The notes under the pieces: generated by a model | The model's input: the letters and a program-made list of their open reading frames with translations, nothing else | What the model was told of the DNA's origin: nothing | The model's database searches: none | NCBI GenBank assembly: GCA_900291995.1 | Contig: OLMU01002625.1 | Location: 1-36,586 of the forward strand | DNA: 36,586 nucleotides | DNA from: Licmophora abbreviata | Lineage: Eukaryota | Direction of reading: 5' to 3' | Made by a program: the position numbers and the translations under genes | Shown here: in pieces, positions 5,237 through 34,728 of the stretch | How positions within the stretch are numbered: the stretch's first letter is position 1 | Layout of the letters: each line of letters starts with the position of its first letter

Positions 5237-7411
5237 ATGTCGTCTCCGAAGGTCCTTCACATTGCTGGCTGGGGATCCTGTACGTTTCCTTGTCTACTCT
5301 GGGTGAAAATAAGCGTCAACAGGGCGATCTTGGTTCCTATTGAAGGCTCCAATGGATTGTGATGGCAAATGCGGCATGCTCCGGGCTGACAATTTCTATC
5401 TACTGTACTGCTGCAGTGGGATGCTTTACTGATCGATCGTATCCTGGTTCGCCCCCTGATTCTCACTCACTGTTCGTCCTCCCTTCCACGCTCACAGGCG
5501 GATTCTACCGCAGAATTACAAGCCTCCTGAGTTCTCTTTCTTTGTTGTATCCTACCAAAGTCAAGGTCGTGCAGCATGACTTTCAAGACCGAACCAACTT
5601 CCGATCTTGGCTTATTGACGGTGGATTTCGTGACAACTTCGTCGATAGTCGGGCCCACACCCACAGCGCGTCGCCCTTTGTCTGGGTGTCGTCTGAAGCT
5701 ACTCCAGAGCCCGACGAAACTGACATTCAGGACTTTTTGGGAGGTCATGACGATACCATCAAATGGTGCCGAACTCTTCTCTCTCCTACTAGCGAGATAG
5801 CGCAACCTCCCCAAGCCATCATGGTAGACGATGGGCATGTGAAGGATCACCCTTACGATTACGACCTTGTCGTCATTGGAGGGGGGTCGGGAGGAATGGC
5901 TGCGGCAAAGGAAGCGGCAGCTCTCGGCGCCAAAGTGGCGCTATTGGATTTCGTCAAGCCTTCTCCCAAAGGAACGTCTTGGGGACTCGGCGGGACGTGC
6001 GTGAATGTCGGATGTATCCCCAAGAAGCTTATGCATTTCGGTGCGCTCTTGCACGAATCAATTAGTGCCGACACGGAAGCCTTCGGTATTACCGTGGGCG
6101 AAACGGATGGTGGCGCACAACATGAGCCCGCGATTCAACAAAAGTGGGAAGCACTGCGTGAAAACGTGCAAAACTACATTCGTGGTCTCAATTTCAAATA
6201 TCGAGTACGTCTTCGCGAAAAAGAAGTTACCTATCTCAACAAGCTCGGTACCTTCAAAGATAAGCACACCATCACAGGCGTCGACAAGAAAGGACGCGAA
6301 AGTACCATTACGTCGTCGCGTTTCTTGGTCGCCGTCGGAGGTCGTCCTCTTCCCCTGGACTGCGAGGGAGGAGAACTCGCTGTCACTTCGGATGATATCT
6401 TTGCCCTCGAGAAGAATCCGGGGAAGACGTTATGCGTCGGCGCCTCGTACATTAGCTTGGAGTGCGCAGGTTTTCTCAAAGGCTTGGGCAACGACGTCAC
6501 AGTGGCCGTTCGCAGCATTCTCCTTCGCGGTTTCGATCGCGAGTGCTCTGAAAGGATTGGAAGTTATATGGAAACTAATGGGGTCAAGTTCAAGTATCAA
6601 GTTCTTCCCAAAAAGCTCGAAAAGGTTGACGGGGATCGCATTAGAGTCACATTCACTGACGACAACGTGGACGAATTCGACACAGTTCTCGTCGCGATTG
6701 GTCGCTATGCCGACACAAAGAACTTGGGATTAGAGAGCGTCTCGGTCGAAACTAGCCCGAAAAATATGAAAGTCGCTGCCAAACTGGAACAGACGGCGAC
6801 GCCGAATGTATATGCAATTGGCGACGTGATGGACGTAAGTACTGAGTTTTGACTTGCGCAAGCTGTGCATTTCTAGCGAGAGTCTCACGAATTTGTCCGT
6901 GTTATTTCTGCATCGGAAGGGATGTCCTGAGTTGACTCCGGTGGCGATCCAAGCTGGTCTACTTTTGGCTCGTCGCCTGTTTGGGGGTAGCAATGAGTCG
7001 ATGGACTATGTCAATATTTGTACGACGGTATTTACTCCCATCGAGTACTCGTGCGTCGGCTTGTCAGAGGAAGCCGCGGCCGAAAAGTACGGAGCTGAAA
7101 ACATCGAGGTGTACCATCGAGAATTCTTGCCGCTCGAGTGGTCGATGAGCCACGGTCGGACTGGCCACAACGCCTTTACCAAGGTCATTGTCGACAAGAT
7201 GCCGGAAGAGAATGTCCTTGGCATTCACTACGTTGGACCAAACGCGGGAGAAGTCATGCAGGGCTACGGCACTGCGATGAAGCAAGGCTTGAGCTTTAAG
7301 ACGCTCACCGAGACGGTAGGTATTCATCCGACATCGTCCGAGGAGATCGTCACTCTATCCGTGACGAAGAACAGCGGCGAGGACGCAGCTGCCGGGGGTT
7401 GCTGAGGATAA
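5237..7411 (+). CDS. TXNRD: Selenoprotein thioredoxin reductase with N-terminal glutaredoxin-like domain (TGR-like); exons 5237-5279, 5498-6834, 6920-7411; Sec at TGA 7403-7405
   Basis: FAD motif GGGSGG, redox disulfide CVNVGC, NADPH motif GASYISLEC and IHPT. The C-terminus GGT TGC TGA GGA TAA reads G-C-U-G-stop. GT-AG introns at 5280-5497 and 6835-6919 give 1872 nt in frame (623 aa). The N-terminal domain has WGSCGFY, SPFVW and FLGGHDD. Confidence 0.95.
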
Positions 7412-7533: not shown

Positions 7534-7617
7534 GAGTCACTTCGCGAGAATGACGGTTGAGTTCCGTGTTTTGGCCCCTGGCCTGGGAACAATACCTGAC
7601 ATCGCTAATGTGAGCTT
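7534..7617 (+). promoter_or_regulatory. Candidate SECIS element (type II-like, non-canonical apical loop)
   Basis: ATGAC 7550-7554 / TGAC 7597-7600 quartet. Helix II is GGT..GTTCC/GGAAC..ACC, with an apical mini-stem GGCC-CCT-GGCC. Helix I is TCAC..GCGA/TCGC..GTGA. It lies about 145 nt after the in-frame TGA. Confidence 0.6.
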
Positions 7618-11181: not shown

Positions 11182-11883
11182 CTTCTTTCTCGCCACCAGT
11201 GACTAAAAGCGCAAGCTTGCGGTTGATCGTTTGGGATCTTCATCGATTTGTTGCATCCTGCCGTCATCGTCGATTTGCCGTCAGGAAGTCCTTTCTTCGA
11301 TATCAACAGACTGGCTGCTAGATATGGCTAGAGACACCTTCGCTGGTGCCAGGTACGATGATGTGCCGTAAGGTGAACAAAGTAGACTTAAGCTCCAGCT
11401 AGCTGATGCCTTTTGCGAAGAAATCGAGAGCGCTCGTTTTACACTCTAGCTCCAGCTATGAAATAGCAAAGAGAGAGACATGTCTTTCATTGTCTGCCGT
11501 TGAGAAGCTGATGTGATATCGAGGATAAGGATATACTCTACTTGACCAGAGGGGCGACAACTGGATCATGACGAGTAGGTCTAGTGTTGGACTACCAGGT
11601 GTGAACAAAAGAGTATGATACCGGTACATTGAACATACGAGAAGCCCTATCGGAAGTGCACTTCACGCACAGCGGACAGATGAAGCGCGGCTTTTTTGGC
11701 GCGCCCGAGAGGAGAACAGAACCAAAGCTGTGTGCTGCAGTGTGCGTTTGTTGCATGAAAGCTGTGCTCTCTTGCTCCATTTACACATTGCAACGTCAAA
11801 GCTCACCGTCGACGACTTTGCATTCTACATCTACCAGTACCGCTGCGTCAGTGCACTTCTTATTGAACGCACAATACTACAGC

Positions 11884-12846
11884 ATGCCTGGAAGACGCAG
11901 CTCTGATGCGGTGGACGTGGAATCTGCCGCAGTGGCTCGTGCCCCTCGTGACGACGACTCGGAGGAAGAAGACGAAGACATGCAGTTCACGCAGCAGCTT
12001 CCTGAGCTCTCCCAGCCCATCATGCCTGCCAAGATGAGCGAGAAGGCGAATTTGGCGAATCTGGGGAACGAGAACAAGCACAAAGTCGTCAGTGACCTGT
12101 CTCGCCTCGTTCTCTTCAAAGCATTGGCCGGAGATCCCATTGATCGCACCAAGTGTCTCAAGGAAGCCATCGGCGACGGAACAAAGGATCGTATCAGCTC
12201 CGCTGCTTTCGAAGAAGCAGCTGCCAACCTCCGTAATGTCTTCGGCTTCGAACTCCGCCGCGTTCCCAAATTCATGGAGAAGATCAAGTCGCTGCCTTCA
12301 AAGTTCAAGGACCGCTACTACGTCATCAATCAAGTCGAGGACGACATCGACGGCTCTCATTCCAAGGAGATTCACTGTATCCATCCCAAGTCCTCCATCG
12401 AAAAGGGCTTCCTCATGGTGGTTCTTGGCTTCTGTTTCTGCAAGGGCGACCCCGAGCCCGACGGCTCTCGCTGGATCTGGGAGAACGACTTGTACCGTCT
12501 TCTGCATGGCGTTGACGAGAATCTGCCGCCCGAACCACCGGAGCAGAAGCGTCGGCTTACGCAATCGTCGCAGGCACGCGCCCGGAGCGGAGGAGAAGAC
12601 TCGGATACTCCCGACGTGGACATTCTTATTGACAAGTTTGTAAAGATGGACTATTTGCTTCGTCTTTCGAAGGACGACAAGAAGGGATCAGGGGACGGAA
12701 AGACCGTCTACTCTATGGGCCCTAGATCTGCAATGGAGATTGGACGCAGACAGGTCATCTCGTTCTGCGCCGAGATTCTTGATGAAGAGCCGGATCCAAC
12801 GATGCTTGCCGAAATCGAGGACAACGGCGACGACGAGGAGTACTAG
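11884..12846 (+). CDS. NSE3: MAGE-domain protein, Smc5/6 complex subunit Nse3
   Basis: MAGE homology features FEEAAANLRNVFGFEL, YYVIN, KGFLMVVLGFCF, FVKMDYL and YSMGPRSAMEIGRRQVISF. First plausible ATG is 11884. Confidence 0.85.
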   Translation: MPGRRSSDAVDVESAAVARAPRDDDSEEEDEDMQFTQQLPELSQPIMPAKMSEKANLANLGNENKHKVVSDLSRLVLFKALAGDPIDRTKCLKEAIGDGTKDRISSAAFEEAAANLRNVFGFELRRVPKFMEKIKSLPSKFKDRYYVINQVEDDIDGSHSKEIHCIHPKSSIEKGFLMVVLGFCFCKGDPEPDGSRWIWENDLYRLLHGVDENLPPEPPEQKRRLTQSSQARARSGGEDSDTPDVDILIDKFVKMDYLLRLSKDDKKGSGDGKTVYSMGPRSAMEIGRRQVISFCAEILDEEPDPTMLAEIEDNGDDEEY

Positions 12847-13101: not shown

Positions 13102-13662
13102 CTAAATCGGCGTCTGCATATCCATAGTTTGTTTCGATTGTTCCAGCGTTTGATTCATTTCCGCGGCCGTACGCAGGAAGTCTTCGATACATTCCAGCAA
13201 GTCGTCGCGACCCAGTCCGCAAATCGGAGCCGAGAAACAAAGATTGACCTCGTCCCCTTCAAAGCCGAGACAAGCTCCTCGCGTACCAGCCTGCATGTAG
13301 TTCATCTCCATGGCCCGCTGCATGACGGCCGCCTTGTTGTCGGCGCGATCGACGCGACATACCATGGTGTATACAAAAAAGATGCCGCTTTGGTCTCCCG
13401 GGACTTCGATGCAGATGATGAACTTGTTAAACTGAAAGTAACACATTCCATCTTTGCTGAGAACGAGCTGTTTGCCGAACACAGTGCCCATACGTCGGAG
13501 GTGTCCATTTAGAGCCTTGCGATTCTTGGCCATTCTTTCCTGTGAGCTTCGATATGAAACCCAAAACATTCGCCGTTGACTCTTCCTCTCGATTTCTAGT
13601 CGCACATCAGACGAGGACACCATCGCGTCCGGCGTGGAATGCATGTGTTTGAGAATATTCAT
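13102..13662 (-). CDS. CesT/Tir-chaperone-like (type III secretion chaperone fold) domain protein
   Basis: C-terminal ~130 aa pattern LVLSKDGMCYFQF..IEVP..FFVYTMVC..AMEMNYMQAGTRGACLGF..VNLCFSAP..LLECIEDFLRTAAEM resembles class I T3S chaperones. Start is uncertain (13662 or a later Met). Confidence 0.65.
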   Translation of the reverse strand: MNILKHMHSTPDAMVSSSDVRLEIERKSQRRMFWVSYRSSQERMAKNRKALNGHLRRMGTVFGKQLVLSKDGMCYFQFNKFIICIEVPGDQSGIFFVYTMVCRVDRADNKAAVMQRAMEMNYMQAGTRGACLGFEGDEVNLCFSAPICGLGRDDLLECIEDFLRTAAEMNQTLEQSKQTMDMQTPI

Positions 13663-14229
13663 GATGATCTCAGCATAGAGTCGAAACACGGCTCTGCTGT
13701 TGCTGTTGTTGACGTGTGTTGACAGCACTGACTTCGATTGTGTGCGTGATGGATCATCCAAGAACGCGGAAGTGACGATTTCTCGATTTCGCTATTGTTC
13801 CTGTCGAAAAGCATCCTGAAATCACCAGAGAAGCTGTTCCTACGACGTGTTTGTTAAGTAACTGTGACGATGATGTCCAGAAGCACGTTTCATACAAAAG
13901 CAGAACAGAGCACAGGAGCGAGCATCGCAACTCAACAAGGGAATGGTCGAAGGCCTCCACCGGTACCAGGGTACCGGTATAGTAGGCACCGGTATGAATA
14001 TAGCTGCGATTAACATAACAGTTGATCGAAATTGTGCATGGCGCCCTGCATTGCACCCGTCTCCGATAGTTCCGCCTCCGCCGCACGCCTCTCTCGCCAG
14101 CCTGATAGCTGCTACCCACGTACGTTTCTCTTACAGTCGTAGAGTAGGTCAACCATAGCTCTACTAGCTTCTATTGTAGTGACGTGAAAAGCGCTCTGCT
14201 CGCCAATTTGTTTTAGAAGTCTAATAATG

Positions 14230-29210: not shown

Positions 29211-30493
29211 CTAGCTAGTAGACAAAAGTTTTACTTTTTCCGCAATGACCTGCTCGAGCTTTTCAGTTTCGGCAATGAAGGCGCGGATTCCTTCAGCCAT
29301 TTTGTCCGTACCACAACCGTCTTGGTTTAAAAGATAGCGGAATTCTTTTTCCTCCAACATCCCGTTTCCAATGAGTGCAAGACCAGATGATTCAGCAGTC
29401 GCTGGATCGAGGACTCGCGGAAGGGGTTCCTCGCTAGCAGCAAGTTTCTCGAGAAGTGGTGCCGGGATTGTCATCCTGTCTACTCCGGCAAGGGCACGAA
29501 TTTCGTCTAAATCATATCCTGGACCACGAGAAGGCCTCCAACTAGCTGGCATGCATATTGTCTTGTGCCCGTGGCACTGAACACACATTTGAGACGATTT
29601 GCAGCATGGTGAGCGGGGCACGTCAAAATTTAGAAGACCGCAAAGTAAGCCTTCGTCTAACTCGTACATACCTTGTAATAATCATACATTTGTTTGACTG
29701 CAATCACGCCCTCATCTTCTTCGGGAGGGACACCGACATCCGCCGGTCTCCCCTCCGCAATCTTGTACCAGTCGAGAATGCGTCCAGGAAATGGCGAGAT
29801 CAAGTGTGCTCCACGCTGAGCACATGCGACGGCTTGAACGAATGAGAAAATGAGAGTAAGATTGCACTGAATTCCTTTCTGCTGCAGCTGCTCCGCTGCT
29901 AGAATCCCCTCCCATGTCGCCGCCAGCTTGATGAGCACGCGTTCCCGAGGCACCCCGATTTGTTCGTACATGTCGATGATGCGTTCGCCTCGTTCGACAG
30001 AGGCGTCTGTGTCGAACGACAGACGAGGATCGACTTCTGTGGAGACATATCCAGGGACAATCATGGCTATGGCAGCCCCGAGGTTGACTGCAAGGCGATC
30101 AATTGCAAGCGACACAGTCTCGTGTTCTGCCGGTAGTCCGGCCGAGACTGCGAAATGTACAGCACTGTCCACCAGCTCTGCGTAGGTCTTATCACCACTT
30201 AATCCCGCTTGCGATATGAACAAAGGATTCGTGGTAGCGTCGGTGATGAATCCAGTTTTTGCGTAAGCCTCGATAACTTTCAAATCCCCAGAGTCGATAG
30301 AAAGAGTCGTCATGCTCGCGAGCTGTGCCAATTGAGACGTTTCAGAAGCCTTGGTCATGGACAACTCTGTGCGAGACATGCTTCGCAAGGACGAGTGCAA
30401 AGGCACCGTCGTGGCGCGGAAACATGATGCTGGAACCGTCCAGCATACAAGCAAGGACGTGAGGAAGACTCTGACTCTTAGAATTTCATGCAT
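29211..30493 (-). CDS. TAL: Transaldolase, plastid-targeted; exons 30493-29672 and 29576-29211
   Basis: IDSGD, DATTNP, VSTEVDPRLSFD, IKLAATWEGI (Schiff-base Lys), CNLTLIFS, ISPFPGRILDW and KMAEGIRAF. 95-nt GTATGT..CAG intron; presequence VPASC-F. Confidence 0.95.
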
Positions 30494-30780
30494 GGTTCAT
30501 CACTTTGTTGTCGGTTGTTGGATATCGTTTGTGTTGCTGTATCTTTTGGCTGTTGATCTTTTCCGAATTGGTGTCGGAGGGAGAGTTTCTACACACACTG
30601 CAGTACATAATGGCCGTGGAACGTGAAGTACGTCAGTGTGACGGAAAATTATGAGGTCTTGAAATCTCGCAGCGAATGTGGCGTGCCATCATATGAATCA
30701 TGGGCAACAACAAAGAAGCACACAACTTGAGGCTGCCTCGGATCGATTCGATTGGATCCGTTTGCATCCGTCTCGTAAGC

Positions 30781-32152: not shown

Positions 32153-34728
32153 TCACCACCACTCGTCGTCCCCTTTCTCGTCATGATCGCCAGTCCTGTC
32201 TTCGCCCTGTTCTGATTCACTTTCATCCGAGTCATTACTATGCTTCAAGAATGAGTCGCCTTCTGAGTCGATTTCTTCCGATATGTTCGTCGGCGCGACA
32301 CAATGTTCTTCCTGAGACTCTGTGTCCGGGGCCATCATGGCTTCGTCGTCGTCACATTCCATTAGGTCTTCATCGTGGTCGCGGTCTTCCTGCTGGGCGC
32401 GTTGAGATTGAGAGGCGTCGGCTCTCTTTTGGTGACAGCAAACAGAGCGAAGCCGCTTCTCGATAGCCCAGGTCGCGACCGTCGCCGACAGAGCGTGCAG
32501 CTCCGGCGCGGCCGAAGAAGCGTCTGCATTCCGTGCCCCTTGGGGTAGGTCTTCTTCTATGAATGAATCATCATTTGCGTTGATATCCCCGTGCCTCCAC
32601 GCGTGGATGGAGAGCTGCAAGGAGGCTTGCAAGGAGGCGTTCTTGGACTTACGCACGATGGATGCGATCGCGCCTGACACAGCAGGAATGTAGCGAGTGT
32701 CCCGCGCCGTGTGTTTGAGCTGCTGGGACGTAAGTAGCAGCTCGGGGTTGGTGACTTGCAGGCTACGAAGGCAGTCAGTAATGCCAAGCTCGAGGGCACC
32801 GCCAATAGCTCGGTTGTTCAAAGGAAGTCGACCCTACAGACCACATTTGCAATTGAAGTCTGAGCAAAAGCGCGAGAATAGGATCACAGCATTGTACACA
32901 AGGTTCTTACTTTTGACAAGGTTGGGAGTGGTAGCGAAGCAGGCTCTGCGCAGATCTGCACAATGACCAGAATCTGACCGAGCCGATGAAACGCCGGAAG
33001 GAGTCGCGCTCGTGAATGTAACTGGCCTTCGTCGTCGCTTGATTCGTCGCTAATGCTCTCATTGTTTTCAAAGAGAGCGTGAACACTATGTTGAAAGAAT
33101 GGTGCCACCTGGTCGCTGTCAACGACCGCATACACAGGAACAAACAGATGTGCTGGCAATTGCCCAGAATGTTCCTCGTCTTCATCACTATTATCTCCAC
33201 CGGTCTCTTTCATGCTTCTAGGAACAAGATTCATTTCTGATGTGGGAGCAATGTGTAGTCCAAACGCATTCCAGCTCGCTTGGTTCGCACAGATTCCTTG
33301 GACAAGCCCACATGCCGCGGCTTCCGCACCGTCCAGAAGAGGCACGCCATTGACCATTCGAATCATGGAAAGCTTTGCATGGCGTTGTTTTTCCTCTCTG
33401 TCCGCAAGTATATCGTCTGCTGAGTCGCTTGTGCAGTACGACATACATTCGTCGTCGCTCATTTCGCTCCCATTTTGACTGCCTCCTCTATGTTTTGATC
33501 TGGTTTGTATACGATGATGGACACTTCTAGCGTCGGCGTGACTCGTCGACGTTTGCCTCGTCCAATGGGATGAGTTGAGTGAGCAACGTTCTTGAGTTCC
33601 ACGTTGCGCATAAGATAGCTTTGGACGGCGCTTCGGACTTGATCTCGATGCACGAGACTCTTGGAGGACCGCTGGTGCCGGTGATGTCGGCTGGTGCTCA
33701 GTCGGGCGCTTCTACCAGCTTGTTCATCACGCGGCGCTTCTACGGCTCCGTGCATCCAGGTGTTGTCCGACTGCAGATCATCCCTAGTGTTGCCAGCATT
33801 GCCGTTGTATGGTTCGTCCTCGCCAGTGATATCGACGACACCTTGCTGTGTTGGTGGCCGGACAAAGAGAGGCACATTTGACAAAGACGGGGCCAATACC
33901 TCGACGCTGCACTTTAGTTTCAGACTGAGTTGAAAGCGAGCAAAGTACTCGGCGAGTCGAGGCCATGCCAGGCGTGCCGTCGGACCATCCTGAGAAAGAG
34001 AGAGAGAGATGCGAAGTTAGTGGCGATGAGATCGGAGCGAGTGGTTCAAGAGAGCTCTCACAGCCCGTTCGACGCACCGGTACAAGAAGACTGACAGCAG
34101 TCCCACTTTCGCCAAACGATGTCTTGGGCAACTGCTCTCGCTTTACGCATCGAACGGAGTCTTCGTCCTTGTCAACCACATAGTTGGCCCTCGTATAGCA
34201 TTCTTGTTCTGTCGTGGCGGACATTATAGACGCACAGGAATCTGGAACGAGGCGTTGCGCGTGCAACATGCACAACGTGAGTCCCAGACCATAGCGCCCC
34301 GCCGTATGATCTACATCGATAGTGCTTGTTTCTATATCGTCCTCGTTTCCATCCGCTCCTGTATTGCGCTTGTTGCATGCCTTGGTGGTTCGAAAGACGT
34401 CTACACACTGCTGGATGTCTTTCATGCCGCATCCGTTGTCAGAGATCGTGACCCGAAGAACAGAATCTTCACTGCTGTACTCTTCATGGCTGTCCTTGAC
34501 GTGTTTGATTCGTTCAATGACGACGCGAACACGTTTGGCAGAGGCCGTGGTGTCGTTTTGTTGCTTACTACAAGCGTCTACTGCATTGTCGACGAGCTCT
34601 TTCACAATCTGAGCAAAGGCGTCGCAGTCTTTCTCTGACACAGCGGCTGCAGATGCGTGGGAGGCTCCGCCACTTTCTCCTCCAAAGCCTCCCAGGCTAG
34701 GATTGGAATGAAAGGCACGGAGCGCCAT
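32153..34728 (-). CDS. Divergent topoisomerase VI subunit B-like protein (GHKL plus transducer; candidate TOPOVIBL/MTOPVIB); exons 34728-34078, 33989-32911, 32833-32153, with a 1-nt frame break near 33460-33510
   Basis: GHKL boxes ELVDNAVDAC, ISDNGCGM, GRYGLGL and GTAVSL. Transducer-like MIRMVNGVPLL..ACGL..WNAFGL and LPLPTLSK-GRLP..LELGITDCLRSL. Introns 34077-33990 and 32910-32834 are GT-AG. Confidence 0.7.

Follow-up and report, generated by a model that had tools for sequence, protein, structure and literature searches.

A diatom gene that very probably encodes a TOPOVIBL protein with the full set of ATP-site motifs

Results

Structure of the gene

The window analysed here is a 36,586-nt contig from the diatom Licmophora abbreviata (OLMU01002625.1; contig C2625 of the 29-Mb assembly GCA_900291995.1). 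It carries on its minus strand a gene that is single copy in the genome and whose features are listed in Table 1. Three exons (803 codons) run from an ATG to a terminal stop, the only stop codon in the spliced model. When eight homologs were compared to the window by tblastn, all eight tiled the same minus-strand segments in order. Both intron positions are family-wide: among 131 representative matches, all 38 exon-1 fragments and 41 of the 80 PTLSK-bearing matches read into V (GT). An initial sequence-only reading had joined four open-reading-frame fragments into one gene. The single gene stands; it has three exons, and the middle break is attributed to a one-base assembly gap.

Table 1. Features of the gene on the window (exon and residue numbers refer to the 803-aa model unless a homolog is named).
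Feature	Position	Strand	Observation
Whole gene, very probable TOPOVIBL of the GHKL-retaining class	32153..34728	-	803-aa model; matched in order by homologs
Exon 1, aa 1-217: N-strap-like start, main part of the GHKL domain	34078..34728	-	Pfam HATPase_c E 3.6e-8
N-strap-like motif MALRAFHSNPSLGGF	34684..34728	-	aligns with TOP6B EFFAENQAIAGF; F6 and N9 kept in 34/35 homologs
N box ELVDN (E44, N48)	34585..34599	-	35/35 homologs
G1 box DNGCG	34426..34440	-	D97, G99, G101 in 35/35 homologs
G2 box GRYGLG, preceded by a 27-residue ATP-lid insertion	34282..34299	-	35/35 homologs
G3 box GT (G209, T210)	34099..34104	-	invariant in family alignment; T210 in 35/35 homologs
Intron 1, 88 nt, GT-AG, phase 0	33990..34077	-	position common to family
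Exon 2, aa 218-577: last GHKL helix, linker, transducer sheet	32911..33989	-	
Unconserved linker at the place of the TOP6B H2TH	33651..33884	-	pLDDT <50, homolog residues 253-286
Apparent frameshift, one base missing in window assembly	33489..33492	-	extra base in 2/2 covering contigs
RMVN with anchoring N431	33349..33360	-	35/35 homologs; aligns with TOP6B RFANRIPLL
WKxY-like motif WNAF (W457)	33262..33273	-	W in 35/35, F at +3 in 29/35 homologs
PTLSK, putative switch lysine K577	32911..32925	-	35/35 homologs
Intron 2, 77 nt, GT-AG, phase 0	32834..32910	-	
Exon 3, aa 578-803: lever helix, three-helix SPO11-binding region (predicted), acidic tail, stop	32153..32833	-	helices in homolog model
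Predicted SPO11-binding helices, RYIPAVSGAIASIV and next helix	32600..32695	-	co-fold interface, exon 3 residues 47-78
Acidic tail, probably disordered, 30% D+E, ends DEWW	32156..32560	-	pLDDT <50, homolog residues 654-774

A third intron, with a fourth exon, was considered near position 33490; none of the GT-AG pairs listed there was convincing, and a one-base assembly gap is preferred. Two of four read runs (X2 and X3, from two studies) cover this position and both carry one extra base that leaves the frame open, each as a single contig at a depth of about 3.3-3.5. The frame break is most likely an assembly error.

The homolog family

Using exon 1 as query, we obtained 50 longer proteins at E<=0.001, and all those with a species name come from diatoms. 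The 35 longest were aligned, leaving out 15 fragments of less than 600 aa. Gathering homologs with exon 1 biases this set towards intact GHKL domains; residues of the transducer lie outside that selection. A profile search matched 699 cluster representatives, 345 of them at E<=1e-30, and no non-diatom member is found among the best 150 of the 699, which are those listed. In an Atlas search the best cluster is a eukaryotic GHKL family (483 aa, Oomycota commonest, score 0.98), while the transducer alone gives three lead-level matches (0.84-0.86), all PF09239. Public records name the homologs hypothetical or "histidine kinase/HSP90-like ATPase".

The ATP site

The GHKL N, G1 and G2 boxes recognized in the sequence-only reading all lie in exon 1, the exon that matches Pfam HATPase_c. 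An N-strap-like start, MALRAFHSNPSLGGF, and a G3 box, both overlooked in that reading, are present as well. We take E44 of the N box to be the catalytic residue and N48 to be Mg-binding, in keeping with established GHKL roles. Residues E44, N48, D97, G99, G101, K116, R145, G147, G149, T210, N431, W457 and K577 are invariant in all 35 homologs. The ATP-lid spacer measures 27 aa in the window protein and from 8 to 79 aa in the 34 of 35 homologs where it is measurable; in 115 of 120 canonical TOP6B sequences it is 7 aa long. So variable an insertion could weaken the ATPase activity of diatom TOPOVIBL, and it is mainly this variability of the lid that raises doubt about ATP use. Judged from the sequences, ATP-driven dimerisation in vivo would be slightly favoured.

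Linker, transducer and C-terminal region

The gene model contains the transducer motifs RMVNGVPLL, WNAFGL and PTLSK, acidic insertions and an acidic C-terminal tail, all of them named in the initial reading. That reading had also seen no recognisable H2TH domain, and none could be detected: alignment to the TOP6B H2TH by hhalign gave probabilities of 1.2% and 0.15%, and the corresponding linker has low confidence in the homolog model. An N-strap, RxxNxxPLL, W motif and YIP helix of Top6B type are apparent in hhalign. K577 would be the equivalent of the lysine in TOP6B KGTGKE by its place just before the lever helix, a pairing that hhalign does not align directly.

A terminal W is found in the acidic tail of 14 of the 33 long homologs. 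Tail ends (window 32156-32200) fall into classes, many being D/E-rich with WW or WF and several G-x-F-F/H-R-like. These classes could correspond to a short partner-binding motif; as a REC114-binding element, the terminal D/E-W motif is no more than a candidate.

Fold and family assignment

Fold comparisons were made with an AlphaFold2 model of homolog P0004, a protein 60% identical to the window protein in exon 1 (mean pLDDT 69.5, pTM 0.68). Foldseek ranked Top6B first (E 4e-15). With VIA-align, ranks 1-10 were all Top6B (Z 22.6-25.1), followed by gyrase B (18.5) and MutL (17.1); a wide search of 48,161 chains gave Z values of 23.9 and 22.1 for Top6B, 17.1 for MutL and about 10 for MORC. MutL, MORC, HSP90 and gyrase B all lie 4-15 Z units under Top6B with this homolog model. 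The best structural match is 1mx0_B (rmsd 3.2 A over 340 residues), and 2zbk_B aligns over model residues 6-630, into the A-subunit-binding helices (rmsd 11.4). The fold searches with the P0004 model brought up no Rec102 or TOP6BL chain, an absence that carries no evidence. The comparison to Top6B proposed in the sequence-only reading thus returned Top6B as the best fold of the homolog model, with a transducer fold present.

Sequence profiles give a fainter picture. Alignment to diatom TOP6B by hhalign reaches 98% probability for the GHKL domain and only 26% for the transducer. PF09239 has no match on the window segments and matches 3 of the 35 homologs weakly (E<=0.1, best E 0.0077), and Top6B is non-significant in a PDB sequence-profile search (E 0.08). 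A prokaryote genome scan with diatom patterns yielded no archaeal TOP6B, and the tree has no archaeal rows for that reason. In the tree, support is 77/64 for the TOPOVIBL family and 57/70 for TOP6B, with saturated outgroups and with 4 of the original 11 TOP6B rows removed under the cutting rule; this tree does not separate the groups and carries no weight in the assignment. A canonical TOP6B identity was rejected, as the protein has no H2TH, stays under the PF09239 cut-off and coexists with a separate TOP6B in the genome. By its fold and missing H2TH, the protein does not group with canonical TOP6B, MutL or MORC, groupings that would have contradicted the initial proposal.

Paralogs and the SPO11 partner

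The separate canonical TOP6B that the sequence-only reading had suggested looking for is indeed there: a single gene on contig G000:C1954, with a 742-aa frame and the genome's sole PF09239 match (E 7.5e-54). In 10 named diatoms that have both B paralogs, TOPOVIBL is 38-49% identical to the window model and TOP6B 60-68%; by these sequence identities, TOPOVIBL diverges faster than TOP6B in diatoms. The genome also has a TOP6A-like gene (L002) and an SPO11-2-like gene (L003), labels that we presume from likeness to database matches and from known motifs. L003 (1432-2940, minus strand) contains a catalytic-Tyr motif REVYY and DCNPYG with DxN; from SPKG to WFCG it carries some 25 additional codons, probably an in-frame intron. 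A broken piece resembling the TOP6A Toprim domain, with a stop and frame shifts (L004, G000:C209:3728-3943), is either a pseudogene fragment or an assembly artefact. A MutL fragment (L008, G000:C6055:13-162) is bacterial-looking by eye and possibly comes from a contaminant contig.

Residues 1-120 of exon 3 were co-folded with the winged helix of the genome's SPO11-2, the one partner used. The score was 0.78, against 0.01 for the best of three controls, and at least 83% of contacts are common to the runs (pLDDT 77 for the partner, only 55 for chain 1). No alignments entered the calculation, and 51 of 78 solved pairs attain this mark, as do 2 of 108 mismatched ones. At the interface, the RYIPAVSGAIASIV helix contacts the first helices of SPO11, which is the known A-B contact. 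The result indicates likeness: the co-fold resembles solved TopoVI complexes and may pass on the strength of memorised structures, and it does not separate SPO11-2 from TOP6A. Co-folding with an SPO11 paralogue, proposed at the outset, thus agrees with binding of the SPO11-2 winged helix by the three-helix region, as modelled.

Expression in the sexual programme

The homolog in Seminavis robusta is Sro495_g154420. Bilcke et al. (PMC8027222) list this gene as SRB21, among 52 genes that sex pheromone induces in both mating types, and annotate it solely as an HSP90-like ATPase with an S5-domain-2 fold. The same text reports that SPO11-3/TOP6A is pheromone-induced too and that the SRB list holds metabolic genes as well; for these two reasons SRB21 induction is not specific to meiotic cutting. 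Of the induction during sexual reproduction that the sequence-only reading had suggested looking for, published RNA-seq provides an instance in one species, shared with SPO11-3. The gene was not found in three supplements of PMC12618581, which deal with expression in other diatoms, nor among markers M1-M4, judged by their described functions. In the diatom meiotic toolkit of Patil et al. 2015, the text available describes SPO11-2 induction and contains none of the B-subunit terms searched (PMC4647503). Our literature search found nothing tying SRB21 to TOPOVIBL, a point on which supplementary files may still bear.

Altogether, the fold, the missing H2TH, the separate TOP6B, the SPO11-2 co-fold and the pheromone induction of the S. 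robusta homolog identify the gene, very probably, as a diatom TOPOVIBL retaining the full set of ATP-site motifs, as initially proposed.

Discussion

Relation to known B subunits

The initial reading implied a novel protein; the class had already been defined. Brinkmeier et al. 2022 describe a "GHKL" TOPOVIBL class with N-strap, ATP boxes, anchoring N and switch K and without H2TH (PMC9665070, Table 1). According to the article and its preprint (bioRxiv 10.1101/2022.05.08.491100), it spans SAR and haptophytes, including Ectocarpus, Aphanomyces, Bigelowiella and the diatom Phaeodactylum tricornutum. The journal text available makes no mention of diatoms; it is the preprint legends that place P. 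tricornutum in three TOPOVIBL alignments, and we infer that this entry is the ortholog of the window gene. Shared features are the N-strap, the N, G1 and G2 boxes, the anchoring N, the W of WKxY, the switch K, the three-helix SPO11-binding region, a linker in place of H2TH and a separate TopoVIB paralog. Compared to the class as the text describes it, no fundamental difference was found; the variable lid, the W-ending acidic tail and pheromone induction are not found in that text. The authors predict a range of activities for TOPOVIBL and report repeated loss of ATP motifs, for example in Albuginales (PMC9665070). Of the "intermediate-type B subunit" put forward initially, the TOPOVIBL identity holds; the motif-retaining form is better read as a conservative, ancestral-like state.

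With canonical Top6B (2ZBK, 1MX0, 2Q2E and the Licmophora TOP6B) the protein shares the GHKL and transducer fold (Z to 25.1) and the ATP-site residues. It differs from it in lacking H2TH, in a PF09239 match that stays under threshold, in faster evolution and in its variable lid; identity to archaeal Top6B chains is about 18%, and the genome's own TOP6B gives mere scraps of BLAST similarity. Mouse TOP6BL, plant MTOPVIB and yeast Rec102 share with it the predicted binding to SPO11 N-terminal helices and the lack of H2TH. In these proteins, however, the GHKL domain is degenerate or absent, whereas the diatom protein keeps all ATP-site motifs tested. Mouse SPO11-TOP6BL is reported not to be dimerised by ATP and to stay monomeric (PMC11922745), so that ATP is not a general need. 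The apicomplexan pTOP6B (Allen and Maxwell 2024, PMC11302465) likewise is described as having GHKL motifs and no H2TH and as belonging to the topo VIB-like class. It lacks the G3-box glycine that is invariant in diatom TOPOVIBL, and Apicomplexa have no canonical TopoVI, unlike diatoms. The same paper remarks that the GHKL folds of topo VIB-like proteins in SAR are similar to the canonical fold, and poses their ATP use as a question.

A proposed mode of action and its alternatives

The best explanation of these data, which we hold with considerable confidence, is that the gene encodes the B subunit of a meiotic TopoVI-like complex with a complete GHKL ATPase site, working as follows. TOPOVIBL would be switched on with the sexual programme, on the basis of one homolog, that of S. 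robusta, in published RNA-seq. Its C-terminal transducer helices would bind the N-terminal helices of SPO11-2, as in the model. Bound to ATP, TOPOVIBL would dimerise via its N-strap like Top6B, as the invariant residues suggest, and would so join two SPO11-2 subunits; once paired, these would make the double-strand cut. Without H2TH, strand passage should be disfavoured, given the known TopoVI mechanism, and the cuts would be left for recombination. Vegetative TopoVI work would fall to the separate TOP6A and TOP6B genes.

Membership in another GHKL family (MutL, MORC, HSP90 or gyrase B), with transducer-like motifs arising by chance, is extremely unlikely. The generic HATPase_c is all that Pfam returns, no PDB profile match to Top6B is significant (E 0.08), and MLH1 stands beside the TOPOVIBL family in the tree, on a very long branch; but a Z gap of 4-8 favours Top6B in the homolog model, the N-strap, RxxNxxPLL, W motif and YIP helix are of Top6B type, and exon 3 co-folds with SPO11-2. 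The modelled fold largely refutes this reading. A frameshifted pseudogene or null allele in the sequenced strain would account for a frame break near 33490 that is real in the window and holds no convincing intron, yet both contigs that cover it, which come from two studies, keep the reading frame and show no other difference at this site, and the motifs on either side are all intact, making such a defect very improbable.

Two further alternatives were weighed. The protein might be a second B subunit for TOP6A (SPO11-3), or for either A subunit, in a topoisomerase that depends on ATP and may serve premeiotic replication or organelle DNA, similar to what has been claimed for pTOP6B of Plasmodium. 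In favour of this, none of the ATPase residues is lost, nor is the switch K, S. robusta SPO11-3 is pheromone-induced too, and the co-fold cannot separate A-subunit paralogs; moreover, PMC11302465 summarises a report of decatenation by pTOP6B in yeast extract. We nonetheless judge this reading improbable: the H2TH domain that links ATP hydrolysis with strand passage is missing, a canonical TOP6B is present in the Licmophora genome and in the 10 named diatoms, and PMC11302465 itself reclassifies pTOP6B as topo VIB-like. The other alternative bears on the dimerisation step only. TOPOVIBL could have a dead ATPase or gate and act as a passive scaffold like mouse TOP6BL, its ATP motifs being kept for fold stability or for nucleotide binding only. 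The ATP-lid insertion of 8-79 aa would fit, as would the mouse complexes, monomeric with ATP (PMC11922745), Spo11 cleavage, which according to a review needs no ATP (PMC12203943), and the repeated motif loss exemplified by Albuginales (PMC9665070). Against it, the catalytic E, lid K and R, G boxes, anchoring N and switch K are kept in 35 of 35 homologs despite 38-49% identity; conservation so selective usually marks an active site and thus counts against a scaffold, which we consider rather unlikely, though by no means negligible.

Returning to the meiotic B subunit, we tentatively suggest, at somewhat less than even confidence, that SPO11-2 and TOPOVIBL in diatoms may form a still ATP-gated meiotic cutter in which ATP-driven closure of the B subunits supplies SPO11 dimerisation, pheromone primes the system before pairing, the fast-varying lid and the acidic W-ending tail tune or recruit, and SRB21 is that subunit. 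In mouse and yeast the SPO11 dimerisation step is weak and ATP-independent; ATP use in diatoms would, if true, be a real difference, and the complex would be a present-day proxy for the stage that separates TopoVI from Spo11 machines working without ATP, found in organisms where sex is inducible in culture. Whether any SPO11 partner uses ATP is a question already posed in the texts of Brinkmeier et al. (PMC9665070) and Allen and Maxwell (PMC11302465), and diatoms in which crosses can be induced are well suited to addressing it. The useful additions made here are the link to pheromone-induced expression, the invariance of the ATP site across the family, and the variability of the lid. An annotation gap is filled as well, the homologs being called hypothetical and SRB21 being listed without function; the predicted diatom TOPOVIBL now has a link to published data on expression induced during sex, and may be of use as a marker of sex.

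Other genes in the window

The neighbouring genes (aldo-keto reductase, transaldolase, CRAL-TRIO) give no hint of function. The transaldolase lies at 29211-30496 (minus strand); the S. robusta SRB list includes a transaldolase too, on a different scaffold from the TOPOVIBL homolog, which is probably coincidence. A MAGE-domain protein (11605-12846, plus strand, E 4.6e-23) is presumably the NSE3 subunit of SMC5/6. A eukaryotic open reading frame at 13102-13791 (minus strand) matches the CesT chaperone family (E 1.8e-9), a fold better known in bacterial secretion chaperones. At 5344-7411 (plus strand) lies a thioredoxin-reductase-like gene with Pyr_redox_2 and dimerisation domains. It ends in GGT TGC TGA GGA TAA, which reads Gly-Cys-Sec-Gly-stop if TGA encodes selenocysteine; the product is probably a selenoprotein, and a SECIS element may lie near 7550-7615.
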